NCBI GenBank assembly: GCA_964450885.1
Contig: CAYVFE010000001.1
Coordinates: 502,572-566,571 of the forward strand
From: an uncultured Gammaproteobacteria bacterium
GTDB lineage: Bacteria; Patescibacteriota; Microgenomatia; Levybacterales; GWA1-39-11
DNA: 64,000 nucleotides
Reading direction: 5' to 3'
Under the pieces are notes generated by a model. That model worked only from the letters and a program-made list of their open reading frames with translations, made no database searches and was not told the DNA's origin. Below are positions 1-16,045 of this stretch, piece by piece; position 1 is the first letter of the stretch, and the number at the start of each line of letters is the position of its first letter. A program made the position numbers and the translations under genes.

Positions 1-43
1 TCTGTCTATAATTTCCAAATATTTATACAAAAAGGGACATCAG

Positions 44-955
44 GTGACAATCATTTGTGAGAAGCATGATAAGAGTCTTAAAAATATTGAGACCATAGAT
101 GGAATCAGAGTGATCCGTATTCCGATCTCCCATTCGGAAAGGAATAAGAAATTTGAGATTTGGAAATGGATTTTAAAAAACAGAGAACTAATAGATAGTT
201 TTGATGTAATCCATATCCACGATGTCTTTTTTTGGATTCTGCCATTGGTGTTCACTGTTAGAAGAGGTCATATTTATATGACATTTCATGGATACGAGGG
301 GTATCCTGTAAGATTCGGAAGTAAAATTCAGAAGAAAATAGCTGATATGTATAGCTCGGGAACTATTACTATAGGAGATTTTATTAATAAATGGTATGGT
401 TTGAAGTCTGATGCGGTAATATATGGAGGAGTTTTTAACATCAAAACAGGTTCAAATCGTCCAAAAAACCCTCTTTCCGCTATTTTTTTCGGAAGATTCG
501 AACCTCTTACAGGAATAGATCAATATTATAAAGCATACAAAATACTTAAGAATAGACATAAGACATTTGAATTTGAGGCTATCGGTAAAGGAAGGTATAG
601 GGATAAGTTAGAGGATATCTCTATTACACCATTTAAGTCAAAAATTACAGATCAGATTCAAAATAGCCGATTTATTTTTGTTTCAGGGTATCTTTCCATG
701 CTTGAGGCGATGATTCAAAAAAGACTTGTGATTGCAGTATATAATAATCCTCTAAAAAAAGATTATCTTTTGGATTCTCCCTTTAGAAAGTATGTGGATA
801 TATGTAGTTCGGGAAATGATATTGCAGAAAAGATTGAATTTTATATTAAAAATCCTAAAGAAGAGGAGAAGAAGATAGATAAAGCTTATTTATGGGCAAA
901 AGAGCAGACTTGGGAAAAGGTTGTCGATACGTACATCAATCTATGGCAAATATAA
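44..955 (+). CDS. GT-B fold glycosyltransferase (GT4/GT1-clan-like). No in-frame stop lies between base 2 and the GTG at 44, so the gene may be truncated at the 5-prime end by the window edge.
   Basis: C-terminal motifs typical of retaining GT-B enzymes: FFGRFEPLTGID..KAY (GRxxxxKG-like), EAIGKG, and the E-x7-E region LSMLEAMIQKRLVIA. The stop overlaps the next gene. Confidence 0.6.
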   Translation: MTIICEKHDKSLKNIETIDGIRVIRIPISHSERNKKFEIWKWILKNRELIDSFDVIHIHDVFFWILPLVFTVRRGHIYMTFHGYEGYPVRFGSKIQKKIADMYSSGTITIGDFINKWYGLKSDAVIYGGVFNIKTGSNRPKNPLSAIFFGRFEPLTGIDQYYKAYKILKNRHKTFEFEAIGKGRYRDKLEDISITPFKSKITDQIQNSRFIFVSGYLSMLEAMIQKRLVIAVYNNPLKKDYLLDSPFRKYVDICSSGNDIAEKIEFYIKNPKEEEKKIDKAYLWAKEQTWEKVVDTYINLWQI

Positions 956-3504
956 AAAAATCCCTGATAGTTACTGTCTATAACGAAGAGTCGTCAATAA
1001 ACTCTTTATTAGATTCGATATATACACAATCAGAATTTCCACACGAGTTGGTAATTGTGGATGGTGGATCTTTAGATAAAACCTTTGAGCTTATAAAAAA
1101 ACACAAGTTAGCTAGTAAAATTAAAGTCAAGGTTCTTGAAAAAAAAGGGAATATTGCAAAAGGACGTAATTTTGCTATAGAGAATGCAACTGGAGAGGTA
1201 ATTGCGATAACTGATGCTGGATGCAGATTAGATAAAAAATGGTTTGAGAATATCACGCGTCCATTCAGCGATAAAAAAATAGATATAGTAGCAGGGTATT
1301 ACAGAGGAAATCCAAAAAGTAATTTTCAAAAGGCCTTAGTGCCTTATGTATTGGTTATGCCAGAAAAAATCAATGAGAGTGAATTTCTACCCTCCGCACG
1401 TTCGATGGCAATGAGAAGAGGCGTATGGAAAAGACTTGGGGGTTTTTCGGAAAAACTTAATCAATCAGAAGACTATGACTTTGCAAGACGAGCAAAAAAT
1501 ATATTTAATATAAAATTTGTAAGAAAAGCTATTGTTTCATGGAGTCCTAGAGAAAGTATATTTTCGGCATATAAAATGTTTTATAAGTATGCATATGGTG
1601 ATATAAAGGCGGGAATTTTGAGACCTAGGGTTGTTGGAATGTTTGCGAGATATTTGTTTGCTGTTCTGTCAATTCTTGCTGCGAGGTTTGTGTCATTCGA
1701 ACTTCCGTATTATCTCAGTGGACTTTATTTACTAACATATGGATTCTGGTCGATCCATAAAAATTATAAATATGTCCGAGATAAATCAGCAGTGCTTTAT
1801 CTTCCGATGATCCAGATAGTGTCTGATATAGCAGTTATGGGCGGATCATTGTCCTCAGCCCTGGTACGTATAGCTAATTTTTTAGTAGTTTTTGCAAAAA
1901 AAGAAAGGAGCACTTTTCTGGCGATTTTGCTATTTATAGTTCTGACGTTAAGTATTATTAAATGGGGACTTCCTAGTAGTAGTCATCCATTCATATATCA
2001 CATGGATGAATGGCATCAGCTCCAATCTATTCGTAATTTATTCATACACCTTTCGCCAAATATGGAAGGGTCCGCGAATGGACCAATTTTTCATTTTGGG
2101 TTGAGCGGGATATATGTAGCGGTTCTTTCTATTTTAGGATTAGTAAATCCGTTTGTTATCAATTCTTCACTAGATAACTTAAATGCGCAAAATTTATTGT
2201 TTGTATATCTACGGTTAAGCACATTATTCTTCTCTTTGGGTGCAGTAGGCTTAATAATTTATATTCTCCGGAAGCAGCTCAAGGTTTCACTGATCGTTTT
2301 GCCAGTTGTTCTCTTCCTATTTTCCCCATCATGGATATCATTAAGTAATTATTTTAAATACGATATAGCTCTTTTGTTCTGGATAATATTATCGATTCTT
2401 TTGATATTCAAATTTTCGACAACGCCTAATTTGAAAAATTATTTACTTGCTGCTCTTCCAGTTGCTTTGGCGATAACTACAAAAATCAGTGCTCTGCCTC
2501 TATTTATAATCTATGTTTTAGCATTTTTTATATATAAGGTGAAACCTCTTAGTAACTTGAGATATCTTTTTCTGGGGACCATCTTATTTTTGACAATCTT
2601 TTTTGTTCTGGGGGTCCCGGACCTATTCTTGGGAACAGGAGACTACCATGAATATTTTTACTCAAATTTAGTCTCTGCCCCTTCGGAGACAGCCAACTAC
2701 AAATTGGGAACGTCATACTGGATCTATCTTTTTACAAATCAAATTCCGGTTCTGTTTGGTCTGTCAATCGTAATCCTCTTTGTCTTTTCGTTGACTTATT
2801 TTACAAAGATAACAATAGCCTCAGGTATAAAAAATATATTTAAAACGAAAAAGAACGAGGTATTTATTCTATCTTCTTTTATCATCTTTGCGGTAAGTCT
2901 TATCCCATTAAAACTTTTTATCGTAAATAGGAGTTTGGTTATTTTGCCGTTTGTCGTTCTATTTATCGGATTAATATTTCAGAAATTTATTGACAATAAT
3001 GCAGATAGAAAAAAGATAGTTCTTTTTATTGTGAGTGTTTTACTAATATTACAGATTGTCCAAGGGTCTTCTTGGATATTCATAAAATATAGTGATCCAA
3101 GAGAGATATCGTCTAAATGGATACTGGAAAATATCGATAAAGGTTCGGAGATAGGGATAGAAAGTGTTCCTATTTATCAATTTCTTCCGGATTTAGTACT
3201 TAAAGAATACTATCAGTCAGAGCGAAATATTGATACAGATATGAATTATAAATATCGGATAATAGACGGTGAAAGTGAGGTCTTGCCGGAATACATAGTT
3301 ATCTCAAATGTTGATATCGCTGCAAGCTATATACATAAATCCCCGAAGAAGAGTTTGATTTTAAGGATGAACAAAGAGGAATACGAAGTCATTAAGGAGT
3401 TTAAATTAAAAAGAGAAATAAATGATTTGTTCGCGACCAGGTTAGATTTTTTCATAAGTCTGCTTTCACCGACACCAAACATCTATATTTATGGTAAACC
3501 TTAA
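943..3504 (+). CDS. Fusion protein: N-terminal GT2 (GT-A fold) glycosyltransferase domain plus a ~600 aa polytopic membrane domain (GT-C / PMT-ArnT-like).
   Basis: GT2 hallmarks: SLIVTVYNEE...LVIVDGGSLDKT...ITDAGCRLD. Residues 250-870 are almost entirely hydrophobic helices. The likely start is the internal Met (MANIKK), which overlaps the upstream gene by 13 nt; the ORF track starts at 892. Confidence 0.65.
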   Translation: MANIKKSLIVTVYNEESSINSLLDSIYTQSEFPHELVIVDGGSLDKTFELIKKHKLASKIKVKVLEKKGNIAKGRNFAIENATGEVIAITDAGCRLDKKWFENITRPFSDKKIDIVAGYYRGNPKSNFQKALVPYVLVMPEKINESEFLPSARSMAMRRGVWKRLGGFSEKLNQSEDYDFARRAKNIFNIKFVRKAIVSWSPRESIFSAYKMFYKYAYGDIKAGILRPRVVGMFARYLFAVLSILAARFVSFELPYYLSGLYLLTYGFWSIHKNYKYVRDKSAVLYLPMIQIVSDIAVMGGSLSSALVRIANFLVVFAKKERSTFLAILLFIVLTLSIIKWGLPSSSHPFIYHMDEWHQLQSIRNLFIHLSPNMEGSANGPIFHFGLSGIYVAVLSILGLVNPFVINSSLDNLNAQNLLFVYLRLSTLFFSLGAVGLIIYILRKQLKVSLIVLPVVLFLFSPSWISLSNYFKYDIALLFWIILSILLIFKFSTTPNLKNYLLAALPVALAITTKISALPLFIIYVLAFFIYKVKPLSNLRYLFLGTILFLTIFFVLGVPDLFLGTGDYHEYFYSNLVSAPSETANYKLGTSYWIYLFTNQIPVLFGLSIVILFVFSLTYFTKITIASGIKNIFKTKKNEVFILSSFIIFAVSLIPLKLFIVNRSLVILPFVVLFIGLIFQKFIDNNADRKKIVLFIVSVLLILQIVQGSSWIFIKYSDPREISSKWILENIDKGSEIGIESVPIYQFLPDLVLKEYYQSERNIDTDMNYKYRIIDGESEVLPEYIVISNVDIAASYIHKSPKKSLILRMNKEEYEVIKEFKLKREINDLFATRLDFFISLLSPTPNIYIYGKP

Positions 3505-3507
3505 TGT

Positions 3508-4731
3508 ATGGGTTATTTCGGACAAACTATTAAAGGCATTTCATGGATAGGGGGGCTAAGAGGAGTGACCCGTGGATTGGCGTTTGTCAGGATTTTGATT
3601 CTGGCTCGGTTGTTGACCCCTTCTCAATTTGGTTTGTTTGGGGTAGCATCTTTTATGCTCGCGCTCGTAGAGGTTTTTACCGAAACAGGTATAAATATTT
3701 TCTTAGTTCAGCGGGAAGGTAAGATAGATAACTATTTAAGCTCTGCGTGGATAATTTCAATTTTTCGTGGATTCATAATTTTTACAGTCATACTCGTAAG
3801 TGCACCATTTGCATCTAGTCTTTTCAATGCGCAGGATGCTCTGGGTCTACTTATTCTTATAGCTTTTGTGCCTTTAGTCAGGGGTTTTATAAATCCAGCA
3901 GTCGTTTTGTATCAGAAGGAGTTGAGCTTTCATAAAGAATTTTATTTTAAGGCAACAGTATTATCATTTGAGGTTGTTGTTTCAGTAATACTAGCCTATC
4001 TACTGCGGTCTCCAGCAGGGCTTATCCTCGGACTTATAGCAAGCGCTATTTTAGAAGTCTTTCTTTCTTTTCTTTTAATAAAATCAAGACCTACATTTAA
4101 ATTTGAAAGAATGCGGTTTGTGGAAGTTTTGCATACTGGTAAGTGGGTTACAATATCAACAATTTTTAATTATTTATACCAGAATGTTGATGATATGGTA
4201 GTTGTGAGATTTTTGAATACCACAAGTCTGGGATTTTACCAAATGGCATACAAGCTTGCGATGCTGCCGATAACAGAGGTTGCAGATGTTGTAGGTAGAG
4301 TAACATTTCCTGTATATGCTAGAATTTCCGGAGATAAAAAGAGACTAAAAAAAGCATTTTATAAGACCATAGCAGCAAATTTAATTCTCTCCTCGCCTGT
4401 AGTTATTGTGTTTATTATATTTCCAAATCAAATAGTTCTATTGATTCTGGGGGAGAAATGGCTAGGTGCCGTGCCTGCATTTCAGGTGTTAGTGTTTTTT
4501 GGACTCGCTAGAGCAGTTACAAGTCCAGCGACGGTATTACTTCTGGCGTTAAAGAGGCAGGATGTTGTCGCAAAAATATCACTTGGCACCTTTTTGTTAA
4601 TGGCCTTGACGATTATTCCTTTTGTCACGATTTGGGGGATTTTTGGAGCAGGTCTCTCATCAGTTTTGGCGTCCGTCATTATGATCCCATTTGCGTATTA
4701 TTTCTCTCTTAGATACTTCTCGGATAAATAG
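3508..4731 (+). CDS. Polysaccharide biosynthesis flippase-like membrane protein (Wzx/MurJ, MOP superfamily).
   Basis: Roughly 12 predicted TM helices. The N-terminal LLTPSQFGLFGVASFMLALVEVFTETGINIFLVQ motif is typical of PST-family flippases. Confidence 0.5.
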   Translation: MGYFGQTIKGISWIGGLRGVTRGLAFVRILILARLLTPSQFGLFGVASFMLALVEVFTETGINIFLVQREGKIDNYLSSAWIISIFRGFIIFTVILVSAPFASSLFNAQDALGLLILIAFVPLVRGFINPAVVLYQKELSFHKEFYFKATVLSFEVVVSVILAYLLRSPAGLILGLIASAILEVFLSFLLIKSRPTFKFERMRFVEVLHTGKWVTISTIFNYLYQNVDDMVVVRFLNTTSLGFYQMAYKLAMLPITEVADVVGRVTFPVYARISGDKKRLKKAFYKTIAANLILSSPVVIVFIIFPNQIVLLILGEKWLGAVPAFQVLVFFGLARAVTSPATVLLLALKRQDVVAKISLGTFLLMALTIIPFVTIWGIFGAGLSSVLASVIMIPFAYYFSLRYFSDK

Positions 4732-4753
4732 TAAAGGAGTTTTTACCAGCAAA

Positions 4754-6181
4754 TTAATTTATTTTTTCTCCCACTATGACTACATATGTAAACAGGTCTT
4801 TAACTCCAAAATGAAATCCTGTCAGCTTGAAGTTTGAGTCTGCCATAATCTTTCTTATTTGAGATTTAGATTTGACTTTGGTTATTTCATGAGGATGGAG
4901 ACGAATATTTTTTTTCAATATGTTGTTGAGCAGAAAGTGTATCGAATTAAGAAAGATTACACTAAGACCAAAATATGGAGGCCAAAAAAGTACGATTTTC
5001 GAGTGTGATTTTAGTACTCTGTTGAATTCATCCAGAGTCTTTCTGATCTCTTTTTTATCCAGGTGCTCCATTACGCCTAGATTGTAGATGCCGTCATATG
5101 TGCTATTTTTTGCTGGAATTTTCATAATACTTCCATGGAGTATTTTGCAATCTTTTCCGTAAAGATGTTTGTATCTGTTTAATGCCTCTGCAGAGATATC
5201 AAGGGCAGTAACATCCATTATTTTTACTATATCGCTATCCACCTGACCACCTCCGCAGCCCGCATGCAGTATTTTTGACTGCATTTTGTAAGTTGATTTT
5301 ATATGCTGATTTAATGCAGGTTTTATAATGAATTTTCTATAAAACACAGCTAAAGTGTCGTAGAAAATTTTTCTTTTGTTTCTATCCATTTTCCAATATG
5401 CATCCCATTCCTTTTCCACGGTGCCTTTTTTTTGATGCGACTTAATACTTGCTGGATGCCAGATATATGAGTCACGGTAAATCTTTGATAGGTATGCAGT
5501 CTGAAATAGGAATTTAAAACTGTACCACGCGTCAGATATTTTCATCTTCGACGACCCGTAGGTTCTGGCAGAAAGTTTTACTGGAACTTCTTTAACCTTA
5601 TACCCGTTAAGAATGAGGATAAACAGGCTTTCAAAAAAAAATGAGTATCCTGTAGACGTTATGAGCTTAAATACCTCTTTGTCCACTTTTTTTAAATTGT
5701 AAAGCCTGAAAGCGCTAGTGGCATCAAAGGGAATGTGAAGAATTTTTTTAGTCAAGAAGTGTCCAGTTATGGCTAGTGTTTTGCGGAATATATTCCAATC
5801 CGAGATTCCATCACTTTTCATATAGCGGGAAGCGATTACTATATCTGATCGGCCCTTTTTATCGATGAGTTTTTTTATAGTTTTTGGGTTATGGGTAAAA
5901 TCTGCATCCATCGTAATAAGGGTCTTGTACCCTTTTTCGTAAGCGTATCTTATTCCATCAGCATGAGCACTTCCGATGCCCAGCTTACTTCCTCTTTTAA
6001 TCAATTTTATATGTGCATCTTTTTTTTGAAGTGCACTAATTTTTTTAGAAGTGCCATCTGGAGAGTTATCGTCGATAAAAAGAATATCTATGCTGGGCAA
6101 ATATTTTTTAATTTTCAAATATAAGGGTTGAATATTTTCTACTTCTTTGTAGGTGGGAATAAGTACCAGAGTATTGTTCAT
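4754..6181 (-). CDS. Fusion protein: GT2 polyprenyl-phosphate sugar synthase-like domain (DPM1/ArnC-like) plus a C-terminal class I SAM-dependent methyltransferase.
   Basis: N-terminus: LVLIPTYKEVENI...LFIDDNSPDGT...TMDADFTHNP, a DPM1-like DxD region. C-terminus: LHAGCGGGQVDSD...ALDIS...LHGSIMKIP...DGIYNLGVMEHL, Rossmann MT motifs I-III. Confidence 0.65.
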   Translation of the reverse strand: MNNTLVLIPTYKEVENIQPLYLKIKKYLPSIDILFIDDNSPDGTSKKISALQKKDAHIKLIKRGSKLGIGSAHADGIRYAYEKGYKTLITMDADFTHNPKTIKKLIDKKGRSDIVIASRYMKSDGISDWNIFRKTLAITGHFLTKKILHIPFDATSAFRLYNLKKVDKEVFKLITSTGYSFFFESLFILILNGYKVKEVPVKLSARTYGSSKMKISDAWYSFKFLFQTAYLSKIYRDSYIWHPASIKSHQKKGTVEKEWDAYWKMDRNKRKIFYDTLAVFYRKFIIKPALNQHIKSTYKMQSKILHAGCGGGQVDSDIVKIMDVTALDISAEALNRYKHLYGKDCKILHGSIMKIPAKNSTYDGIYNLGVMEHLDKKEIRKTLDEFNRVLKSHSKIVLFWPPYFGLSVIFLNSIHFLLNNILKKNIRLHPHEITKVKSKSQIRKIMADSNFKLTGFHFGVKDLFTYVVIVGEKIN

Positions 6182-6271
6182 GAATCTTAATAAGTACGGA
6201 TATAAAATCTAATAATTCTAACAAAAGATAAAATTAATTTCTATGCATCGATTGCATATTTTTGAATAGAA

Positions 6272-7516
6272 TCATACAATTTCCAGCGCCGGCAAAGGAA
6301 AAATGAAATGTCCTCCCGATTTTAGGTAATCTTTTTCACGTTGCAAAAATTCTTCTTTAAAGAACCATGGAAGTACTAGCATATAGTCTGGTTGTTCTTT
6401 TCTTGCTTGATCTTCCGAGATAATGGGGATGCCTACAGAAGCAATATTTGTTCCCCATTTTTCGGGATTCCTTTCGACGGCCTTATCAATAAGCTTGTTA
6501 TCCAGATCGAAATATTGAAGTAGTGTATTTCCACGGGTTGACGCACCGTAAATATAAATCTTCTTTCCATTCTCGTGTTCCCTTTTTATAAATTCATAAA
6601 CGTCTTTTTTAATTGATTTTATTCTTTTTGCAAAGTCTGTGTATATTTTTTGCCTTTTTAAATTTATAAGACTTTCGAGCTGCAGCTGCTCACGAACATA
6701 ATTTGTTATTGGAAACTTATCCTTTTTGCAAATATATGTTCTAAAGCTCCCTCCATTAAGGTCTCTTAATTCCAAATCAAATACTTCTAAGCCATGTTGG
6801 CCTAACAGGTTTTGAAGAGAGGTTAAAGAATAGTACTCTAGGTGCTCATGAACTATATTATCGAATGCGTTTTGAGTAAGCATTTTAACGAGATAGTTTT
6901 GCTGTATTACAAAAACCCCATCATCTTTTAATATTTTGATTACATCAGACACAAATTTATTTGGGTGCTCCATATCATAGAAACATGAAATCGCTGTTAC
7001 TATGTCTGCTTTATTATTGACTAAAAAAGGACTAACTGATTCATAATTAAAAAAATCCGACACAACTGCATTGGCGTGTTTTTTACTATACTTTGCAAAT
7101 TTCTTTATGGGGTCAACAGCTAGTCTATAGTAGCCTTTAGGATAATTTGAAAGCAACGTTCCATCGTTTGCGCCAATATCAACCACTGTAAGTTTTTCTT
7201 TCTTCCCTGCGATTTTTAGGGTTTTTCTGACTACATCAGATAACTCGTCTTGCATCGTCTTGTTTATTCCGGATTTATAACCATAATTTTCGCTATAAAG
7301 TAGAGAAGTTGGGGCATTGTGTTTTAGTTGCAGGAGATGGCAGTCTTTGCAAAAGATTAGTTTTAAGGGAAAGCTTTGAGGCTTTTTATTGCTTTTGGTG
7401 AATTCAGAAAGATACAATTTGCCTAAATTTAGGATGGTTGAAAGATTTTGCGATTTGCAGGACCTACAGTATCTGATCGATATATCTTTACTTTTCATCA
7501 ATTTTAATATCGTCAA
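6272..7516 (-). CDS. SAM-dependent methyltransferase with an N-terminal Cys4 zinc ribbon (domain layout of NDP-hexose C-methyltransferases such as TylCIII).
   Basis: CRSCKSQNL...CKDCHLLQL, then VVDIGANDGTLL (motif I), then a C-terminal alpha/beta extension. Confidence 0.55.
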   Translation of the reverse strand: MTILKLMKSKDISIRYCRSCKSQNLSTILNLGKLYLSEFTKSNKKPQSFPLKLIFCKDCHLLQLKHNAPTSLLYSENYGYKSGINKTMQDELSDVVRKTLKIAGKKEKLTVVDIGANDGTLLSNYPKGYYRLAVDPIKKFAKYSKKHANAVVSDFFNYESVSPFLVNNKADIVTAISCFYDMEHPNKFVSDVIKILKDDGVFVIQQNYLVKMLTQNAFDNIVHEHLEYYSLTSLQNLLGQHGLEVFDLELRDLNGGSFRTYICKKDKFPITNYVREQLQLESLINLKRQKIYTDFAKRIKSIKKDVYEFIKREHENGKKIYIYGASTRGNTLLQYFDLDNKLIDKAVERNPEKWGTNIASVGIPIISEDQARKEQPDYMLVLPWFFKEEFLQREKDYLKSGGHFIFPLPALEIV

Positions 7517-7568
7517 TTATATATTAAAAATACTGTAAAACAAATAAGAAGCTCATCGTTAAAGTTGG

Positions 7569-7577
7569 TATAATCAC
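7569..7577 (+). promoter_or_regulatory. Extended -10 promoter element (TGgTATAAT) for the GT-C gene at 7610; this region is shared divergently with the methyltransferase gene.
   Basis: The sequence aaagTTGGTATAATcac lies about 33 nt upstream of the ATG. No good -35 element is present. Confidence 0.35.
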
Positions 7578-7609
7578 TAGGTAAATACGTGAGCACAGGG
7601 ATTTAATGC

Positions 7610-9148
7610 ATGAAATATAAATATATTGTTATTATTCTAATCTTTTGTTTTTCTCTATTCATAAGGCTGGCGACTTTAAATCAGATCGGAAGAACATGGG
7701 ATGAGCCTCAGTTCATAGAAGAGGGATATAGAATGGTGGAATTATTTAAAGCAGGGGATTTAAATAATAGTTTTTTTTATACGACTTACGATCACCCGCC
7801 ACTTATCAAATACATATTTGGAATTACATCGTATCTTGATATAAAAGAAACGAAACCGAATGGCGATGTTATTTTTAATTATGATTACACTTATTCTAGA
7901 ATATTATCTGCGACTCTCTTTTCTATAGGCGTGGTAATGACGGTGCTTTTGGGGTGGAGACTGTTTTCACCATTTGTGGGGGGTATTTCAGGTGTTATTC
8001 TGGCTATGCTGCCATTTTCTGTTGGTCTTTCGCAATTAATCAGTGCGGAGAGTTTGAAGATATTTATCTATCCTATTGCAATTTATTCAATTTTGTTGCT
8101 TGTTGAAAAGTTTTCATTAAAAAGAGCTATAGTTGTTGGGTTAATAATAGGCATCGCTCTTCAAGTCAAACAGTCAAACGGTTTACTGTTCCTGGTGCTC
8201 GTGGGCATGCTGATAATTAGATACTTTAGTTTAGGTAAAAAGAAAAGGCTAGGATACATTAAGAGTAGGATTGCTGGATTTTTTGTAGTAGTAGTCGGCA
8301 GTATGCTTTCCTTTATAGCGCTGTGGCCTCAAGCGATATTCAATTTGGACAAGATTTATAAGATTCATGACAAATTTTGGGGTGTTGAATTTTCTCCAAA
8401 ACCATGGCTTATTACGATGTCTGTACCCGAAGTTTTCTTTGGAAGACTGATCATAACGCCGAATTTTTATTATCTTGTCTATTTTTTCATAAGTACACCA
8501 GTGGTTATTTTAGCCCTGTTTTTTGTAGGTATTTGGAAGATAGTAATGTCAAAAAACTGGAAGCTTTATATTCTGATTATTTGGTTTTGTGTTCCTTTTC
8601 TCCTATCTCTTTATTCATGGAGACAGCATGGGCTTCGATATCTTATTGAAATTTATCCAGCCTTAGCGCTTATTTCCGCTATAGGATTTGATTCTTTGGC
8701 CAGTAGGCTTACTACCAGCCTTCGCAATAAAGCGTTGATATTTGGACTAGTTATTATTTATCTTTTCGCATCTCTTTTATACGTGAAACCATATTATTTA
8801 GAGTACTATAATGAATTAGTGGGGGGTACAGGTAATGTTTACAGGAATAACTGGTTTCAAATAGGCTGGTGGGGACAGGGATTAAGAGAGGCTGGTCTAT
8901 ATATAATCAACAATTCTGAAAATGATTCTGAGATAGGGCTTGCTATTTCTCCCGATCATGTTTTGCCCCGTTCTGAAAATTTAATTTACTCAGATTTTGT
9001 GGAATCCAAAAATTATGATTATGTAATAGTAAATCATTATCACATTATCCGTGATGGATTTGATGATAGCAGCATAAGGGCTGATTATAATTTAATTTAT
9101 CAGGTCAAAGCTGATGGGGCAACACTGGTCTATATATATAAGAAATGA
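7610..9148 (+). CDS. GT-C fold polyprenyl-phosphate-sugar-dependent membrane glycosyltransferase (PMT/ArnT, GT39/GT83-like).
   Basis: Multiple TM helices. The first extracytoplasmic loop carries the conserved acidic motif RTWDEPQF..EEGY...YDHPPL, characteristic of PMT/ArnT/Stt3-type GT-C enzymes. Confidence 0.55.
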   Translation: MKYKYIVIILIFCFSLFIRLATLNQIGRTWDEPQFIEEGYRMVELFKAGDLNNSFFYTTYDHPPLIKYIFGITSYLDIKETKPNGDVIFNYDYTYSRILSATLFSIGVVMTVLLGWRLFSPFVGGISGVILAMLPFSVGLSQLISAESLKIFIYPIAIYSILLLVEKFSLKRAIVVGLIIGIALQVKQSNGLLFLVLVGMLIIRYFSLGKKKRLGYIKSRIAGFFVVVVGSMLSFIALWPQAIFNLDKIYKIHDKFWGVEFSPKPWLITMSVPEVFFGRLIITPNFYYLVYFFISTPVVILALFFVGIWKIVMSKNWKLYILIIWFCVPFLLSLYSWRQHGLRYLIEIYPALALISAIGFDSLASRLTTSLRNKALIFGLVIIYLFASLLYVKPYYLEYYNELVGGTGNVYRNNWFQIGWWGQGLREAGLYIINNSENDSEIGLAISPDHVLPRSENLIYSDFVESKNYDYVIVNHYHIIRDGFDDSSIRADYNLIYQVKADGATLVYIYKK

Positions 9149-11340
9149 ATAAAAAAATATCGGTAATAATAGTTCACTACAACGTTAAAAAAGAGTTATT
9201 CGATTGCATAGAGTCTATTTATAAATCTAAACCGAGAGTAGATTTTGAAATAATTGTAGTGGATAACGACGAAGTAAAAATAATCGAAAAAGATTTGAGG
9301 AAAAAATTCTCAAAAGTAATTTATATCAAGAATAAAAATAACGGTTGGGGTGGAGGAGCCAACAAGGGGGTTAAGTATGCAAAAGGAGAATATCTCTATT
9401 TCTTAAATCCAGATACGATTTTTATGAACAATGCGCTTGATGCAATATATGATTTTGTCAAAAGAAAAAAAGATATAGGAATAGCATCGTCACTTTTATT
9501 TGACGAAGAAAAAAAAGTCTATCCACTCCAAGGTACAAAACTATTGAATCCTTTGAATGCAATATTCTCGCTTTCTTTCATAAATAAGTTTTTTCCGAAC
9601 AATCCGATATCAAAAAGATTCTGGATGAGAGGGAGAAGTAAAAAAGATATTTCAGAAGTTGAATCTTCCACGCTCAGTGCAGCTCTTATAAAAAAAGAAG
9701 TCTTTATAGAGGCTGGGAAGTTTGATGAGAACTACTTTTTGTATTATGAAGAATATGATCTCAGCAAAAGATTAAAGAGAATAGGATACAAGAATTTTAT
9801 AGTTCCTAGTTCGAAGGTTATTCATATATGGGAGGCAAGCGCCATAAAAACAGGAAGAACGAAAGAATTTATGGATAATAGCCGAAAGTACTACTTCAAG
9901 AAATATTATGGTTCTATATTAGGTAATCTAATCGAACTGGTTCTCGGACTTAATAAAAAAAATCTGCTTGTGTATTTATTTTTGTTGGGAATATTTTCGA
10001 TAGGAGCATATCTGCGGCTGAGCGCCTTGGATAAATATGTGCCATTCATCGGAGACCAGGCCTGGTTTTATTTATCGGCGCGAGACTTTATATTAACAGG
10101 TGAAATCCCTCTTTTGGGGATCACTTCTAGTCACACCTGGATACACCAAGGTGCGCTATGGACTTATTTACTAACTCCCGCTCTTTTTCTCTCGAGTTAC
10201 AATCCTATTTCGGGATTTTACCTTTCATCGCTGTTGGGAATATTAACAGTAGCTGTATCCTATAAGCTCGCTAGAGATTTTTTTTCAAGAACGTTTGGAC
10301 TAATATTTGCAGCTCTTATTGCCGTATCTCCTCTTGTAGTATTCCATTCAAGGTTTGCATATCACACAACACCAATACCTTTATTCGTTATCTTGTTATT
10401 TTATTCGATGAGTAAGTGGTTAAAGGGGAGTGTTAACTATTTTCCTATTGTACTTTTTTCAATGAATGTTCTTTATAACTTAGAGCTTGCTACAGTGATA
10501 TTCTGGCCAGTTATCATAGCGTATCTGTTATATGGATTCACAAGAAAGAAAGAATATGCATTAGGTTTAGTTAGAAAAAATATAGTATTTTGGTCTTTGT
10601 TGGCTTTGGTAATTCCAATGGTGCCAGTTCTAGTTCATGACTTGAAAAGCGGATTTCCTCAAACAGTAGTCTTTGGAGGATGGTTTGGATATAAACTGCT
10701 GCAATTTGTGGGTATTATTGAGAAAAGCGCGGTTGATGAGAGCTCAATTAGACTCGCTGTTAATTTTTTTATTGAAAAGCACAATCAGCTCTTTTTTACT
10801 TTTAATCAATACATATCTTTTGGAGTGTTTTTAGTAGCCATGGTAATTTCCTTTACAGTGTCTTTAAAAAGATCTTTGTTGTCCAATTTTGGAATAGTTT
10901 TCATGCTAACTTTCATGGGACTTTTGGCATACTTTATGTCAGGCGTACCCTCAGAAGCATATTTAGTTATGCTTTTTCCCGGACTGTTATTTATCCTGGC
11001 GTTTGCTATTTACCAACTTAGAAATAGAGTTCTAATCTCCATTGTGATGATGATTATTTTTGCTACAAATATTTATTATTTAATAACAACTAATTACCTT
11101 ACTATAGATACTGTTACTTTATCAGAAAAAATTTCTGCCTCTAAGGAGATTTTGGAACTAACAAACAGTAACGAATTAAATCTGATCTACAAAGGGTCTG
11201 GTGAGGAGTTTCAAAGCAGTAGAATGCCTTATGAATATCTAGTATGGTGGAGAAGTGGAATGAATCTATCTGAGGCGGGGAGAAAAGTATTGGTTACAGA
11301 GCAGGGAGGTAATATAATTATTAGTAGAATAAATGAGTAA
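9145..11340 (+). CDS. Fusion protein: N-terminal GT2 domain plus a C-terminal ~470 aa polytopic membrane (GT-C-like) domain.
   Basis: ISVIIVHYNVKKEL...IIVVDNDE...YFLNPDT (GT2), then about 12 TM helices. It overlaps the upstream gene by 4 nt. Confidence 0.65.
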   Translation: MNKKISVIIVHYNVKKELFDCIESIYKSKPRVDFEIIVVDNDEVKIIEKDLRKKFSKVIYIKNKNNGWGGGANKGVKYAKGEYLYFLNPDTIFMNNALDAIYDFVKRKKDIGIASSLLFDEEKKVYPLQGTKLLNPLNAIFSLSFINKFFPNNPISKRFWMRGRSKKDISEVESSTLSAALIKKEVFIEAGKFDENYFLYYEEYDLSKRLKRIGYKNFIVPSSKVIHIWEASAIKTGRTKEFMDNSRKYYFKKYYGSILGNLIELVLGLNKKNLLVYLFLLGIFSIGAYLRLSALDKYVPFIGDQAWFYLSARDFILTGEIPLLGITSSHTWIHQGALWTYLLTPALFLSSYNPISGFYLSSLLGILTVAVSYKLARDFFSRTFGLIFAALIAVSPLVVFHSRFAYHTTPIPLFVILLFYSMSKWLKGSVNYFPIVLFSMNVLYNLELATVIFWPVIIAYLLYGFTRKKEYALGLVRKNIVFWSLLALVIPMVPVLVHDLKSGFPQTVVFGGWFGYKLLQFVGIIEKSAVDESSIRLAVNFFIEKHNQLFFTFNQYISFGVFLVAMVISFTVSLKRSLLSNFGIVFMLTFMGLLAYFMSGVPSEAYLVMLFPGLLFILAFAIYQLRNRVLISIVMMIIFATNIYYLITTNYLTIDTVTLSEKISASKEILELTNSNELNLIYKGSGEEFQSSRMPYEYLVWWRSGMNLSEAGRKVLVTEQGGNIIISRINE

Positions 11341-12079
11341 GTTAACTGTCGTTATTATTACAAAAAATGAAGAATCAAATATAGATTCTTGTCTCAAGCA
11401 ATTAGTCTTTGCAGACGAAATAATATTGATTGATGATAATTCAACAGATAAAACTTTAGAGATTGCAAAAAAATATAAAGTAAAAGTTATTAGCAATAAA
11501 TTGTCTTCGTTTTCGCATCAAAGAAATTTAGCATTGGAGAGAGCATCAAATAGTTGGGTGCTATTTATTGATGCAGATGAAACAATAGATGAAAAGTTGA
11601 GAGAAGAGATTTTAGAAAGAATATCGGAAGAGACATACGATGGTTACTACATAAAACGAAAAGATATATTTTTAGGATACGAAATGAAGTATGGAGACTT
11701 AGAGGATGTACGGATTTTGCGACTTGGAAGAAAAAATAGCGGAATGTGGGAAGGAGATGTGCATGAAAAGTGGAGAATCAAGGGTAAAACATCAAATTTA
11801 AAAAATTCGCTAGGTCATCATTCTCACCAGAACCTGTTTCACTTTATAGATAAAATTAATTACTACTCGTCGATAAGAGCAAATGAATTAAAGCAAGGCA
11901 ATATAAAATCTTCTTTTCTGACGATTGCTCTTTATCCGATGTTTAAATTTGTAATACTATATTTTTCGAAAATGGGATTTAGAGATGGACTGCCGGGATT
12001 TATTCATGCACTTTTTATGAGTATGTATTCATTTTTAGTTCGTGGGAAGTTATATCTGCTATACAAGGATGAAAAGTAA
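11333..12079 (+). CDS. GT2 family glycosyltransferase (WaaE/KdtX-like small GT2).
   Basis: LTVVIITKNEESNI...ILIDDNSTDKT...LFIDADE. There is a C-terminal amphipathic/TM segment. The gene overlaps the upstream gene by 8 nt. Confidence 0.7.
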   Translation: MSKLTVVIITKNEESNIDSCLKQLVFADEIILIDDNSTDKTLEIAKKYKVKVISNKLSSFSHQRNLALERASNSWVLFIDADETIDEKLREEILERISEETYDGYYIKRKDIFLGYEMKYGDLEDVRILRLGRKNSGMWEGDVHEKWRIKGKTSNLKNSLGHHSHQNLFHFIDKINYYSSIRANELKQGNIKSSFLTIALYPMFKFVILYFSKMGFRDGLPGFIHALFMSMYSFLVRGKLYLLYKDEK

Positions 12080-12139
12080 AGATACTCTATTTTCTATATT
12101 TGCAGCTATTTTATTTTCTCTTTATCTATTACATTTATT

Positions 12140-13705
12140 ATGCAGGGTAGATTACTGTTTTTATTTGCCACTTTAATCGGATTATTTTCATATTCTGTTT
12201 TGGTGTTGGGATTGCTGGGTTCTATAAATAAAATCTCTGTTTTGTTTGTTACCATAGTGTTTTTTGGCATAATCTTTTATTCTTTTTTTAAACATCCGGA
12301 ATCTGTAAAAAGTCTATTTGTACAAGCTAAAAAAAATCTTTTTTATTTTTCTATACTTTTTGGTCTGGCACTGATCAATTTTGTTGGAATGTTAGGTCCT
12401 GAGCTGGGATTTGATGCTCTTTGGTATCATCTTGTTATCCCCAAGTTGTATGTAGCCAGTGGTGCGATTGAATTCATCCCCAACGGTCTACTTTACTATT
12501 CTGTAATGCCAAAGCTTATTGATATTTTATATATACCCGCCTTAATGTTTTCAGACGAGACTACAGCAAAATTTATACATTTTCTATTTGGTCTTTTAGC
12601 GACCATAGGAACTTATAAAATAGCAAATTTATTTTTAGATAAAAAGCTTTCTTATCTTGCAGCTGTGATATTCTATTCAAATCTGGTTGTAGGATGGCTG
12701 TCGATAACTGCTTATATAGACCTTGGTCGAACCTTTTTCGCAACGCTTTCGATTTATTTTTTTCTTCAATACTTTAAGTTAAGAGAGCCCAAATACTTAT
12801 TTGCGTCATCGATATTAGTTGGTCTTGAAATTAGTACTAAGCTATTGGGATTTTCGACACTAATTTCCCTATTCATCGTGCTTTTGATTTTTTCAACAAA
12901 AGCAACGATAGGTGACAAAATCAAGAATGGGTTATTATTCCTTGTTATCCCCATACTAATTAACGCTATCTGGTTCATCTTTGCCTATGTAAATACAGGG
13001 AACGCTTTTTATCCTTTCTTTTCTGAAATCTATCCATCAAAAATTCTAGCTTCAAGCATTAGCCCTATCATCATGAAAGATACTCTCGATTTATTTTTAT
13101 TCTCAGCTGATCCAATATCACCTATATATTTAATTGTTACACCGCTTTTGATCTTAATGTATAAGAAAATGTCCTATGAGATTAAGATAATTTGCGCTAT
13201 TTTGGTGATAAACCTTCTAATATGGAATTTCATACCGCAAAAGAACTCAAGATTTTTTCTACCATATTTACCTTTATTTTCAGCACTTGTTGTTTGGGTT
13301 ATAAGTGTATCAAGGGAGAGAATAAAAAAGACCTTATTAGTGGTAGTTTATTTAACAATAATTGTAAATTTAGTATATCGAGGTGTAGCTAATTTTAAAT
13401 ATTTACCGGTGATTTTAGGTTTGCAAACAAAAGAAGAGTTTTTGGTTAAGTATCTAAATTTTGACTATGGAGACTATATAGATGTTGGTAGTAGCGTAAA
13501 AAAAATTGTGGGAGAAAACAGGGTTCTGGTAAAAAATATCCACAATCTGTATTATGTAGATTTCCCCTTTGACCACGAGTCGTGGGAAAGAAAAATCAAT
13601 TATAAGTACATTTTAATTAGAGGTAATCTGAACAACAAAAAAGGATATAATCTAGTATATAGCGATCCAATAACGAATACGTATCTTTATGAGTCAGATA
13701 AATAG
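12140..13705 (+). CDS. Polytopic membrane protein, GT-C-like (ArnT/PMT-like).
   Basis: At least 12 TM helices and a periplasmic-loop aromatic/acidic motif (FDALWYH). No soluble catalytic domain is present. Confidence 0.4.
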   Translation: MQGRLLFLFATLIGLFSYSVLVLGLLGSINKISVLFVTIVFFGIIFYSFFKHPESVKSLFVQAKKNLFYFSILFGLALINFVGMLGPELGFDALWYHLVIPKLYVASGAIEFIPNGLLYYSVMPKLIDILYIPALMFSDETTAKFIHFLFGLLATIGTYKIANLFLDKKLSYLAAVIFYSNLVVGWLSITAYIDLGRTFFATLSIYFFLQYFKLREPKYLFASSILVGLEISTKLLGFSTLISLFIVLLIFSTKATIGDKIKNGLLFLVIPILINAIWFIFAYVNTGNAFYPFFSEIYPSKILASSISPIIMKDTLDLFLFSADPISPIYLIVTPLLILMYKKMSYEIKIICAILVINLLIWNFIPQKNSRFFLPYLPLFSALVVWVISVSRERIKKTLLVVVYLTIIVNLVYRGVANFKYLPVILGLQTKEEFLVKYLNFDYGDYIDVGSSVKKIVGENRVLVKNIHNLYYVDFPFDHESWERKINYKYILIRGNLNNKKGYNLVYSDPITNTYLYESDK

Positions 13706-14909
13706 AACTGCTTTTATACTATACATAGCCCTGACATGTTTTTTTCCATTAGGTGTTCTTGTTCGATTTACTCCAGTTGTAAACTTCAATATTTATCCAC
13801 AGGACGTTATAGTATGTGGAATTTTTCTACTAACTCTTTTTTCTTATTTTAAGAATAAGAAAAAGCACTACAAAACGCTTTTTTACTCAATCACAATTTT
13901 TAATGTGATAGCCATCCTTTCCTTAGTTATTAACATTTTCCGGCTAGATCAAAATGAACTATTTGTTTCCTTTTCTTATTTAATAAGATTGGATGCATAT
14001 ATTTCGTTGTTGTTTATAGGTTTATTTGGTTTTAGTAAATATAGAACAAGGATTTTAGGAAAATTATTCATGATTGCATCGTGTTTATTTATTATTTTTG
14101 GTTTTGCTCAATACTTTTTTTATAATAACTTGCGGAACTTGTATTACTTAGGTTGGGACGAGCATTTGTACAGACTTTTTTCTACATTTTTAGATCCTAA
14201 TTTTGCTGGAGTTCTTTTCGTTCTTATCGCATTGGTTTTTCTGGGAAAGATATTGGATAAGAATTCCCATAGCGCGGCGAGCCTAATGGTAGATATAGCC
14301 TTGATTATAGCTTCGGTTCTTGCAATTATTCTTACCTATTCTCGAACTGCACTAATAGCGCTTTTTGCGAGCGGACTCTTTTTTCTTACAATAAGAAGAA
14401 AAATTAAACTTTTAGTTATCTCGGTAGTAGTTTTGTTGACAGTAGCATTCTTAGTATCAGATTTTTCAGTCGAAGGAATGAATCCAATAAGAATAGCCTC
14501 ATCGGAAGCAAGAATACATTCAATGAATGAGGCGGTAGATATATTTACAGACAGTCCAATTTACGGAATAGGCTTTAATGCCTATAGATATTATCAGCAA
14601 GATAAAGGATTTAGAAAGGACACGCTATCTATTTCGAGCAATGCAGATGCCGGGACAGACAACAGTTTTCTTTTCATCTTAGCAACGACCGGAATCATTG
14701 GATTTATTGCTTATTTGAATATCTGGTTCGTAGTCTTAAAAAAGATAAGCAAAAAAGGCCCTGAAAAAAGTTATGTTTCTTATGCGATAATTATTGCACT
14801 ATTTACCGGGAGTTTATTTGTGAATGCTTTGTTCTATGCTCCTATAATGTTGTGGGTATTTTTATATTTAGGAAGACAGATAGATCCGGATGACAACTAT
14901 TCTTTGTAG
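13689..14909 (+). CDS. O-antigen ligase / polymerase family (WaaL/Wzy_C) membrane protein.
   Basis: Polytopic. It has a large periplasmic loop with a conserved R/H and the IYGIGFNAY (GxGxGxF-like) motif typical of the Wzy_C domain. Overlaps the upstream gene by 17 nt. Confidence 0.55.
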   Translation: MSQINRTAFILYIALTCFFPLGVLVRFTPVVNFNIYPQDVIVCGIFLLTLFSYFKNKKKHYKTLFYSITIFNVIAILSLVINIFRLDQNELFVSFSYLIRLDAYISLLFIGLFGFSKYRTRILGKLFMIASCLFIIFGFAQYFFYNNLRNLYYLGWDEHLYRLFSTFLDPNFAGVLFVLIALVFLGKILDKNSHSAASLMVDIALIIASVLAIILTYSRTALIALFASGLFFLTIRRKIKLLVISVVVLLTVAFLVSDFSVEGMNPIRIASSEARIHSMNEAVDIFTDSPIYGIGFNAYRYYQQDKGFRKDTLSISSNADAGTDNSFLFILATTGIIGFIAYLNIWFVVLKKISKKGPEKSYVSYAIIIALFTGSLFVNALFYAPIMLWVFLYLGRQIDPDDNYSL

Positions 14910-15628
14910 TCTACCTTGATTTCTTTTGAGGTTTTTATGCCTGCTTCGTTGGTTGCTTCTACAGTTATTGTATTTTCACCTTCGCTAAGTTCTAGCCTGT
15001 AAGAGTATTCACCCTCGCTATCAACAATCGCCCTAAAACCATTAACAGTAATAGAGTTATTAGGATCAGTCTTACCAGATACTGTAATTGTCTTATCTGC
15101 CTTAGTAAACGATGACTTGTCCGAAGGGGCACTTATCTCAAGTTCTGGCTTGTCTGAAGACCTCGTGATACTATAATCTTGGGAAAAATCACTTTCCTTA
15201 TCATCGAGAAAGTATTTTGCGTTTATGGTATTCTCGCCATTTCGAAGATCAATCCTTTTGAATTCAAAATTATTACTACCATCCAGCGATATGTCGTCTA
15301 CCTCTTTTTCGTTAACATATAATATAATTTTCCCCTCATTGTATGACGAACTGCCAGCGATATTAATTTGTGCACTTGATGTAGCGTTCTGGATTCCATT
15401 TAGGGTAGGTGCAGCAAGAAATTGCTCCTGCAGGATAGATTCGCTAGACTCTGTTTCATCTCCTCTGATACCAAATATTATGTTTCCAAATGCGCCGAGT
15501 AGGGCACCTGAAAATTGAATTAGTAGAAAAATTATAATAAGTGTTCCCAGACCAAAGAAAATAAATTGTTTCTTGCTCTGTTTTTCGGCGTATCTGGAAA
15601 GTCTAGACGATCTTATTCTTCTTGCCAT
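14897..15628 (-). CDS. Membrane-anchored surface protein: basic cytoplasmic tail, one TM helix, extracellular Ig-like beta domains.
   Basis: MARRIRSSRLSRYAEKQSKK, then a TM helix, then Ser/Thr/Asn-rich beta-strand repeats (ITVSGKTDPNNSITVNG..., TITVEATNEAG). Its 3-prime end overlaps the convergent ligase-like gene by 13 nt. Confidence 0.45.
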   Translation of the reverse strand: MARRIRSSRLSRYAEKQSKKQFIFFGLGTLIIIFLLIQFSGALLGAFGNIIFGIRGDETESSESILQEQFLAAPTLNGIQNATSSAQINIAGSSSYNEGKIILYVNEKEVDDISLDGSNNFEFKRIDLRNGENTINAKYFLDDKESDFSQDYSITRSSDKPELEISAPSDKSSFTKADKTITVSGKTDPNNSITVNGFRAIVDSEGEYSYRLELSEGENTITVEATNEAGIKTSKEIKVDYKE

Positions 15629-15631
15629 AAA

Positions 15632-16045
15632 TTACTGATACTTTTGTTTCTTCTTCATTTTATCAGCAACATGAAGCTCCATAATAGCTTTTTGGAGTTC
15701 TTTCTCTGCCATTGCGAAATCGACATCGCTTTCCCTCTTTCTCATAGTTTCCTCTGCGCGTTTTTTTGCCTCTTGGGCTCTGGCTGCCTGTATGTTCTCT
15801 GCTTTAATCAGGTGGTCAGAGAGTATAGTGACATTTCCGTCGCTCACTTCAACAAATCCGCCAACGGTCGCAATAATATTTTCTCTTGATCCCTTTCTGA
15901 TGCTTACGAGACCACTGCTCATTTTAGTGAAGAGAGAAATGTGATGGGGAAGGATAGTAATTTCTCCCTTTGGGGTTGGTAGAGAAATCTCATCAACAGT
16001 GTCCTGATAAATTGTTCCTTCAGGAGAAACTACGTTTAGATTCAT
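15632..16045 (-). CDS. atpC: F1 ATP synthase epsilon subunit.
   Basis: MNLNVVSPEG...EISLPTPKGEITILPHH matches the conserved epsilon N-terminal beta-sandwich. Last gene of the atp operon. Confidence 0.9.
   Translation of the reverse strand: MNLNVVSPEGTIYQDTVDEISLPTPKGEITILPHHISLFTKMSSGLVSIRKGSRENIIATVGGFVEVSDGNVTILSDHLIKAENIQAARAQEAKKRAEETMRKRESDVDFAMAEKELQKAIMELHVADKMKKKQKYQ

Follow-up and report, generated by a model that had tools for sequence, protein, structure and literature searches.

Two genes in a glycan cluster from a Levybacteria-like bacterium of the candidate phyla radiation (CPR, or Patescibacteria) were found to encode a glycosyltransferase family 2 (GT2, GT-A fold) domain and a polytopic GT-C glycosyltransferase domain within one polypeptide. 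The cluster occupies the first ~15 kb of a stretch of 64,000 nucleotides (contig CAYVFE010000001.1; hereafter the window), and the genes are the open reading frames (ORFs) A and B. Both halves of each protein belong to known families. Each gene is the fused form of a GT2/GT-C pair whose members are encoded separately in sister genomes (a Rosetta-stone pattern).

943-3504, + strand: ORF A, 853 amino acids (aa); GT2, interface region with two transmembrane (TM) helices, GT-C and a C-terminal outside domain
9145-11340, + strand: ORF B, 731 aa; GT2, amphipathic linker, GT-C and a C-terminal outside domain

ORF A and ORF B are intact fusion genes

The original prediction had proposed two single-polypeptide GT2 plus GT-C fusions, and this was borne out by Pfam matches to both halves, by more than 100 full-length homologues of each protein, and by AlphaFold2 models built on family alignments. 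The models had a mean predicted local distance difference test score (pLDDT) of 90.1 for A and for B and predicted template modelling scores of 0.86 (A) and 0.79 (B), and they were confident over both GT2/GT-C junctions. The best 120 matches to A were all full length, as were nearly all of the best 120 matches to B, in both cases from independent assemblies and at 39-62% identity; the homologues that carry a name belong to Candidatus Levybacteria or Patescibacteria. When one genome per GTDB species was scanned, 77 loci were recovered, 52 of them with fused A, and 35 B-type GT-C matches in these loci had a B-type GT2 directly adjacent. The reading frame of ORF A from its first ATG spans 892-3504 (870 aa), and the ATG at 943 gives the 853-aa product, which corresponds to the public protein P0001 with 100% identity and coverage. 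The start of ORF B overlaps the stop codon of the upstream gene (ATGA).

The original prediction had itself named a frameshift or assembly error joining two separate genes as an outcome to look for. Split versions do exist in other genomes (see below), but the same uninterrupted ORFs with conserved junctions recur in hundreds of independent assemblies, the models retain high pLDDT across the junctions, the exact A and B proteins are present in NCBI, JGI, ENA and Logan, and both occur together on one public 588-kb contig. Since each protein has more than 100 full-length homologues, A and B are not artefacts; the homologue searches and the GTDB-species scan exclude such an error, to which we attach practically no weight.

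Some homologues have already been automatically annotated as 'GT2 family glycosyltransferase/4-amino-4-deoxy-L-arabinose transferase-like glycosyltransferase'. No description or test of a GT-A/GT-C or GT2/GT-C fusion, or of CPR glycosylation, was found in the searchable literature, which leaves most subscription journals outside it.

The membrane halves are related to PMT and PMT_2 enzymes

The C-terminal halves of both proteins are divided into a membrane domain and a soluble end.

1903-3084, + strand: A, GT-C membrane domain (aa 321-714, ~11 TM helices), placed by PF02366, invariant residues, DSSP and the positive-inside rule
3085-3501, + strand: A, C-terminal alpha/beta domain (aa 715-853), predicted outside, with an invariant IGxExxPxYQ motif
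9955-11088, + strand: B, GT-C membrane domain (aa 271-648, ~11 TM helices), placed by PMT_2 and hhalign
11089-11337, + strand: B, C-terminal alpha/beta domain (aa 649-731), predicted outside

Profile matches assign these membrane halves to the PMT/PMT_2 (GT-C) families, as the original prediction had anticipated. The A product matched PMT (PF02366) at 27.4-28.7 bits, above the cut-off of 22.7, and B matched PMT_2 (PF13231) at 23.0-24.1 bits, below the cut-off of 26.1. Across the families, PMT_2 was recovered in 14/19 A-type GT-C domains (best E 1.2e-14) and PMT in 10/19 (best E 6.7e-11), while 21 of the 22 B-type domains matched PMT_2 (best E 3.9e-11). Using hhalign, B-type GT-C domains were related to the A-type with 95.7% probability and to the family of a stand-alone PMT_2 protein encoded in the same cluster (12140-13705) with 94.8% probability. 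Profile searches of the PDB using full-length A and B, the A-type GT-C or the stand-alone PMT_2 family found no GT-C chain, and hhalign gave no significant match between the GT-C profiles and the E. coli ArnT sequence, used as a single sequence (probability <1%).

Each GT-C half contains ~11 TM helices, judged from DSSP of the AlphaFold2 models and from hydropathy, which falls within the 8-13 TM helices of the polytopic membrane proteins that make up the GT-C superfamily (PMC8035078). The original prediction had given 470-600 aa of membrane helices; the C-terminal halves do measure 538 aa (A) and 466 aa (B), but the helices take up only ~380-400 aa of each. The remaining soluble ends, the last 140 aa of A and the last 80 aa of B, are predicted to be extracytoplasmic. 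A cytoplasmic GT2 domain in both proteins agrees with helix parity and with where Lys/Arg fall in the family alignments; by the same criteria the C-terminal domain would be outside, as would the first long loop and the loop that follows the seventh TM helix.

Conservation of an acidic residue in the first outside loop had been suggested as a check on GT-C identity. In A, an invariant M-D355-E356-W-H (2002-2016) opens this loop, with D355-E356 present in 38/38 and 19/19 sequences. In B, the loop opens with an invariant G303-D304 within G-D-Q (10051-10059), where D304 is present in 39/39 and 22/22 sequences and Q305 is nearly invariant. The outside location of the acidic motif is predicted from helix parity and the positive-inside rule. 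The motif itself stays unchanged in stand-alone forms encoded at Amesbacteria, Beckwithbacteria and Paceibacterota loci. Further invariant polar residues fall in predicted outside loops, namely K472-Y-D474 (2356-2364), K514 (2482-2484) and P559-D560 (2617-2622) in A, and R403, Y406, H407 and E447 in B, the latter protein with an R-F-A-Y-H-T motif at 10351-10368. With this conservation, the PMT/PMT_2 matches and the loop charges, the GT-C halves look catalytically competent.

The possibility that the membrane halves are simple anchoring helices, which had been raised as a refutation of the fusion proposal, was ruled out by the PMT/PMT_2 matches and the topology; the conserved loop residues likewise speak otherwise.

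The GT2 halves do not group with ArnC/GtrB/DPM1-type synthases

943-1617, + strand: A, cytoplasmic GT-A (GT2) domain (aa 1-225), placed by PF00535, invariant columns and Foldseek matches to TarS/PcManGT
1618-1902, + strand: A, interface helix, TM hairpin and long amphipathic helix (aa 226-320), placed by DSSP, loop charges and the PcManGT alignment
9145-9858, + strand: B, cytoplasmic GT-A (GT2) domain (aa 1-238), placed by PF00535, Foldseek matches to WrtF/ppGalNAc-T/K4CP and TIGR01556
9859-9954, + strand: B, basic/aromatic amphipathic helices linking the GT2 to the first TM helix of the GT-C (aa 239-270), placed by AlphaFold2 and loop charges

Glycos_transf_2 (PF00535, cut-off 23.3 bits) was detected at the N-terminus of A with 75.4 bits and of B with 74.0 bits, and the modelled domains resembled solved GT2 enzymes of the GT-A fold (TarS, PcManGT, WrtF, TarP and K4CP) with a Foldseek probability of 1.00. 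Both GT2 domains had been described as canonical, with DAG/DxD in A and NPDT in B. The translations do contain DAG (1213-1221) and NPDT (9406-9417), but the canonical DxD is absent from both fused domains, in which this motif is degenerate. In the family alignment of A the invariant residues include D40, D91 and G93 (of DAG), and E176-D177 (1468-1473), a putative catalytic base. In that of B, N88-P89-D90-T91 are all invariant, as are E203/D205 (9748-9759) and H227 (9823-9825). Both families thus retain the equivalents of the nucleotide/metal-binding Asp of DxD and of the catalytic acid expected of GT2 enzymes. The earlier claim that the two copies differ held, as A and B represent different GT2 and GT-C subtypes.

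The two GT2 modules also differ in how they would meet the membrane. That of A has its own interface helix and two-TM hairpin (aa 206-320; helices at 206-222, 228-246, 253-277 and 287-320 by DSSP) ahead of the GT-C part, a region assigned to the GT2 module because stand-alone A-type GT2 genes (289-388 aa) retain it. The GT2 of B lacks any TM helix, and B-type GT2s that stand alone terminate in an amphipathic helix.

The original prediction had cast each GT2 as the equivalent of ArnC or DPM1, charging polyprenyl phosphate for its own GT-C. Three kinds of comparison did not support this. First, the best NCBIfam models for the A GT2 were generic GT2 families (TIGR04283, MftF, EpsD), with the ArnC and PpgS models reaching 17-19 bits; for the B GT2 they were TIGR04283, a rhamnosyltransferase subfamily and PglI, with TIGR01556 (rhamnosyltransferase) scoring 47 bits, and ArnC and PpgS were not among the matches listed. 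Second, phmmer with E. coli ArnC and GtrB (YfdH) aligned only the N-terminal part of A (15 bits) and gave no match to B. Motifs taken from an ArnC/GtrB alignment rather than from a curated definition (an uninterrupted DAD-xxxxP, FR after the GT-A core, and (E/A)RxxGxSK ahead of the membrane helices) were absent from A (DAGCRLDKKW) and B (NPDTIFMNNA). Third, the Foldseek top 50 for A comprised TarS, PcManGT, WrtF, RmlT, TarP and polypeptide GalNAc-transferases, with TarS and PcManGT nearest, and that for B comprised WrtF (target TM-score 0.68), ppGalNAc-T, RmlT and K4CP (chondroitin polymerase). GtrB, DPMS and ArnC appeared in neither top 50. By these comparisons, the fused GT2 domains of A and B are not of the ArnC/GtrB/DPM1 type.

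Relatives encode the two modules as separate or rearranged genes

At 10 loci the A-type GT2 and the A-type GT-C are encoded by two different genes; stand-alone A-type GT2 forms measure 289 and 388 aa. One gene lies between them at locus L057, and in Amesbacteria loci the A-type GT2 sits in a GT4-GT2-Wzx operon with the A-type GT-C elsewhere. For the B-type, locus L080 encodes a 282-aa GT2 (33% identity, E 3e-38) that overlaps a 470-aa GT-C by 4 nucleotides, and at L006 and L081 a C-methyltransferase gene stands between the two. For the B-type GT-C, 188 clusters reached E <=1e-30; of the 150 best representatives, ~51 are fused and ~75 stand alone.

Modules have also been combined differently. 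An 832-aa ORF from a Paceibacterota metagenome-assembled genome (MAG; L067:9101-11599) carries a B-type GT2 on an A-type GT-C, with a similar arrangement at L073, indicating that GT2 and GT-C modules are shuffled between fusions. Two B homologues, P0152 (1092 aa) and P0211 (1118 aa), contain a GT2 followed by two PMT_2 regions and look like GT2-GT-C-GT-C triple fusions.

It could be argued from this exchange of GT-C modules between GT2 types, from their frequent occurrence as stand-alone proteins, from the lack of a TM helix in the GT2 of B, and from the amphipathic ends of stand-alone B-type GT2s, that the GT-C half mainly holds the GT2 at the membrane or serves an unrelated step, with no mechanistic coupling. 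However, a polytopic domain of 466-538 aa with a folded outside domain goes far beyond the needs of anchoring, GT2 and GT-C adjacency is conserved down to the 4-nucleotide overlap of a split pair, and neither the acidic motif nor several residues of the predicted outside loops vary, whether the forms are fused or stand-alone, arguing for a conserved catalytic site. Because of these invariant residues a pure anchor role is unlikely, and we rate uncoupled halves in general as improbable.

The fusions belong to a conserved glycan cluster

The remaining genes of the cluster are as follows.

44-955, + strand: GT4-type (GT-B) glycosyltransferase, directly 5' of A
3508-4731, + strand: Wzx-type (MOP family) flippase, Polysacc_synt_3 at 224 bits, directly 3' of A
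4754-6181, - strand: DPM1/ArnC/GtrB-type GT2 fused to an S-adenosylmethionine (SAM) methyltransferase, 475 aa; best NCBIfam models PpgS, PgfS and AglJ, plus ArnC over the full GT-A domain
6272-7516, - strand: nucleoside diphosphate (NDP)-sugar C-methyltransferase-like gene, Methyltransf_14 at 157 bits and Methyltransf_13
7610-9148, + strand: stand-alone GT-C-like protein with a weak PMT_2 match and a WDEP motif after the first TM helix
11333-12079, + strand: small GT2 (248 aa, hydrophobic C-terminus) that overlaps the end of B
12140-13705, + strand: stand-alone GT-C, PMT_2 at 36.5 bits (above cut-off)
13689-14909, + strand: Wzy_C / O-antigen-ligase-like membrane protein (Pfam), at the end of the cluster

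The cluster is compact (~15 kb, with overlapping start and stop codons) and syntenic across Levybacteria-like genomes, and it is a cell-surface glycan cluster of such a genome. Wzx is the next gene after fused A in 18 loci, and a GT4 homologue lies upstream of A in most related loci, usually at a distance of a few kb. Intergenic gaps in 1-14909 leave no space for a GtrA-like ORF, and no GtrA-type gene is present in the cluster. Scanning 1-15800 for promoters and terminators gave results no better than those from shuffled sequence.

When compared with A and B, only the 4754-6181 product aligned with E. coli ArnC (28.6 bits by phmmer) and GtrB (21.8 bits) over the whole GT-A domain (aa 5-212). 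It shares with ArnC all three motifs, DADxxxxP, FR and (E/A)RxxGxSK, of which GtrB has the last two and DVD for DAD. A homologue is present in 31/55 loci of at least 15 kb and directly follows fused A in 12 loci. This gene likely encodes a polyprenyl-phosphate sugar synthase and, as it alone groups with ArnC/GtrB, the cluster would already hold a conventional, unfused donor synthase.

For this third fusion, to a methyltransferase, a full-length homologue appeared only at L044 (62%); elsewhere the DPM1-type GT2 occurs alone (~236 aa, e.g. L016:12570-13280) and methyltransferases are separate genes. The protein might methylate the lipid-linked sugar.

The small GT2 at 11333-12079 is possibly a second enzyme of the polyprenyl-phosphate type, and together with the 12140-type GT-C it may form a classical split donor-synthase/GT-C pair. 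A GT2 of this type is followed by a 12140-type GT-C within 400 nucleotides in 12/22 loci. Separately, its sequence includes a NELKQGNIKSS stretch like the (E/A)RxxGxSK motif of ArnC and GtrB.

A proposed mechanism with enzymes on both membrane faces

The interpretation that we favour, at roughly even confidence, treats A and B as joined GT-A/GT-C gene pairs whose products act on opposite faces of the membrane: the fused GT2 domains would extend a lipid-linked saccharide, the GT-C domains would transfer sugars outside, and the DPM1-type gene would supply the polyprenyl-phosphate-linked monosaccharide. From the topology, the N-terminal GT2 would face the cytoplasm and use a nucleotide sugar, and the C-terminal PMT/ArnT-like GT-C, with its conserved acidic site on the outer face, would use a polyprenyl-phosphate-linked donor. 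At the inner face, the fused GT2 (Leloir) domains and the GT4 enzyme would add sugars to a polyprenyl-(pyro)phosphate-linked saccharide, and the adjacent Wzx flippase would move lipid-linked intermediates outward. Outside, the GT-C halves and the two stand-alone GT-Cs would pass sugars from lipid-linked donors to the final acceptor. Polyprenyl phosphate would most likely be charged with a monosaccharide by 4754-6181 (-), perhaps also by 11333-12079, and not by the fused GT2s. The fusion would then tether a Leloir enzyme both to the membrane and to a partner acting outside.

Several points weigh against this interpretation. The four GT2 and four GT-C modules of the cluster occur as pairs, two fused and two adjacent, with the GT2-then-GT-C order conserved in fused and split forms; such a paired arrangement is the pattern that would be expected of donor-synthase/transferase pairs, by analogy with CsbB/YfhO or GtrB/GtrC. 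GT2 subfamily is no reliable guide to acceptor type, and the listed Foldseek matches of the GT2 domains all have E-values of ~1e-9 to 1e-8, so their ranking discriminates poorly. Finally, neither the window cluster nor the L016 cluster, which is complete and flanked by housekeeping genes, yielded a priming phosphoglycosyltransferase (PF00953, PF02397), and some GT2 may therefore have to start on polyprenyl monophosphate. The A GT2, with its own TM region, is a candidate for this role.

The paired modules, their conserved order, the lack of a priming phosphoglycosyltransferase and the TM region of the A GT2 favour a scheme in which each fusion supplies itself: the fused GT2 would charge polyprenyl phosphate, or prime a polyprenyl-phosphate-linked oligosaccharide, and after flipping by Wzx its own GT-C would transfer the sugar outside. 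Such a scheme would account for two predicted active sites on opposite faces of one polypeptide and for the 1:1 pairing of modules. Moreover, Wzx adjoins A, and flippases of this type serve polyprenyl-phosphate-sugar systems such as GacIJKL and WpsABGJ. The A GT2, with its interface helix and TM hairpin, also matches Glyco_transf_21 and Glyco_tranf_2_3 in Pfam, whose members often glycosylate lipids, and PcManGT, its best membrane-embedded structural match, is reportedly dolichyl-phosphate-dependent. On the other side, NCBIfam, phmmer and the top Foldseek matches group the unfused neighbour gene, and not the fused GT2s, with ArnC, GtrB, DPM1, PpgS and PgfS, and the NPD...H signature of the B GT2 and its structural neighbours (WrtF, ppGalNAc-T, rhamnosyltransferase) are typical of enzymes with hydroxyl acceptors. 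The A-type GT2 of Amesbacteria stays with GT4 and Wzx while the A-type GT-C is elsewhere, and shuffled modules, such as the B-type GT2 on an A-type GT-C at L067 and the GT2-GT-C-GT-C proteins, also argue against self-supply. We regard self-supply, for which A with its lipid-facing TM region is the stronger candidate, as the main alternative, but a tentative one.

In its most novel form, this would make each fusion a single-chain transmembrane machine, with the GT2 half loading a sugar on polyprenyl phosphate, or priming an oligosaccharide there, inside, the GT-C half unloading it outside and recycling the carrier locally, and flipping performed by Wzx or by the protein itself. We hold this, too, as tentative. 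If true, a direct physical link between a GT-A donor synthase and its own GT-C transferase would be described for the first time, and the GT2 subtypes involved would be ones that so far are not known to use polyprenyl phosphate.

Relation to characterized glycosylation systems

The cluster fits the multi-component class of transmembrane glycosylation systems. In these, a membrane-linked GT-A makes a C55-phosphate (C55-P)-linked sugar, a GtrA- or Wzx-type flippase moves it, and a GT-C with an acidic outside-loop motif uses it (PMC8035078); the systems built from a GT-A, a Wzx-type flippase and a GT-C include some with cytoplasmic elongation on the C55-P-linked sugar (PMC8035078, PMC10821137). 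GT-A and GT-C are encoded together, fused in the window and adjacent or translationally coupled where relatives have them split, and a Wzx-type flippase is present in the window. Whether the fused GT2s would be the C55-P-activating partner is a point on which the lines of evidence diverge: their subtype speaks against it, the pairing of modules and the absence of a phosphoglycosyltransferase for it. GtrA/B/C, CsbB-GtcA-YfhO, GacI/J/K/L and lactococcal WpsA/B/G/J similarly encode a cytoplasmic GT-A, a flippase and a polytopic GT-C with an acidic outside-loop motif together, and the flippase of the cluster is, like GacK and WpsG, of the Wzx type. Unlike in all of these, GT-A and GT-C here form one polypeptide, and the fused GT-A is not of the GtrB/CsbB/GacI subtype.

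ArnC/ArnT of E. coli and Salmonella share with A and B the same two fold classes and the same inside/outside logic, and PF02366, matched by the membrane half of A, is also the Pfam family of ArnT. In contrast to that system, ArnC-like similarity is here confined to a separate gene, 4754-6181 (-).

Mycobacterial Ppm1, with which the fusions had been compared, is likewise a GT2 fused to a polytopic membrane domain and, with Pmt, places a DPM1-type synthase and a PMT-family GT-C in one organism. The membrane domain of Ppm1 is Lnt/CN-hydrolase-like and not GT-C, and the DPM1-type GT2 of the present cluster is fused to a methyltransferase instead. A Ppm1-like architecture for A and B was ruled out by their PMT/PMT_2 membrane halves and their non-DPM1 GT2 domains (Pfam, NCBIfam, phmmer).

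Foldseek aligned residues 1-320 of A with almost the whole chain of PcManGT (PDB 6YV7), a membrane GT2 whose fold is of a minimal cellulose-synthase-like kind, its membrane part included. The alignment has 324 columns for 345 target residues, a target TM-score of 0.57, an E-value of 1.4e-9 and 19% identity. In contrast to A, PcManGT is a stand-alone archaeal enzyme. The GT2 of B resembles WrtF/WbbL-type rhamnosyl-/fucosyltransferases and ppGalNAc-T-like GT-A enzymes, with a root-mean-square deviation of ~4 Å to WrtF and the NPD...H signature. WrtF adds fucose to O-polysaccharide (PMC12595478). Unlike B, these enzymes carry no fused GT-C and occur as soluble or peripheral proteins.

Among GT-C enzymes, the PMT (GT39) protein O-mannosyltransferases resemble A in having ~11 TM helices, a D-E motif in the first outside loop, which is a PMT hallmark, and the above-cut-off PF02366 match. 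They differ from A and B, which lack a MIR domain, have a different C-terminal domain and gave no sequence-profile match to solved PMT structures.

Implications

It is difficult to tell which donors, acceptors and partner enzymes belong to a given GT-C enzyme, and a natural fusion with split counterparts provides a Rosetta-stone link showing which GT-A works with which GT-C. CPR bacteria contain many GT-A/GT-C modules, and to our knowledge no surface-glycan structure has been determined for any of them. Should the halves be mechanistically coupled, the fusions would offer compact, self-contained tools with which to study or engineer lipid-linked glycosylation across a membrane, and further GT2 subtypes would join those known to use polyprenyl phosphate. 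Should they be uncoupled, the analysis still usefully maps a Wzx/GT-C glycan cluster that is conserved in Levybacteria-like genomes, and in which ordinary biochemistry comes in an unusual package.

Additional observations

Many of the MAG entries that carry the cluster (among L002-L075) are labelled 'uncultured Gammaproteobacteria bacterium' or 'Pseudomonadales', and L058 is labelled 'Limisphaerales'; these labels are almost certainly mislabelled or placeholder taxonomy. In-frame stops were seen in two GT-C homologues, L004:15800-17056 (B-type) and L064:18754-20328 (12140-type), which are either pseudogenes or MAG assembly errors.

Large ORFs that gave no Pfam match lie in or beside the cluster at L016:8102-9952 (-), L057:8409-9947 (+) and L054:8184-9497 (-). 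The first of these has weak tblastn similarity to the GT-C at 12140-13705 and may therefore be a divergent GT-C. At the same locus, L016:6363-8105 matches PTPS_related and YfhO.

At the end of the window cluster, on the opposite strand, 14897-15628 (-) encodes Ig-like/Glucodextran_B domains with an N-terminal hydrophobic segment. Proteins of this kind stand at the cluster end in three genomes (the window, L080:9004-9413 and L082:5392-5744), and such a protein may sit at the cell surface or serve the glycosylation system as a substrate.

Elsewhere in the window, a MurT/GatD-like pair (28736-30804, - strand; Mur-ligase-like plus CobB/CobQ-type amidotransferase) and a class A penicillin-binding protein (47236-49512, - strand) indicate that the organism makes peptidoglycan, which is probably amidated and to which the glycan of the cluster might be anchored. 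A 'sugar-transfer associated' ATP-grasp domain is fused to a retropepsin-like/Zn-protease-like C-terminal region at 38091-39389 (-), and 45149-46783 (+) is a 544-aa ORF with no Pfam match.

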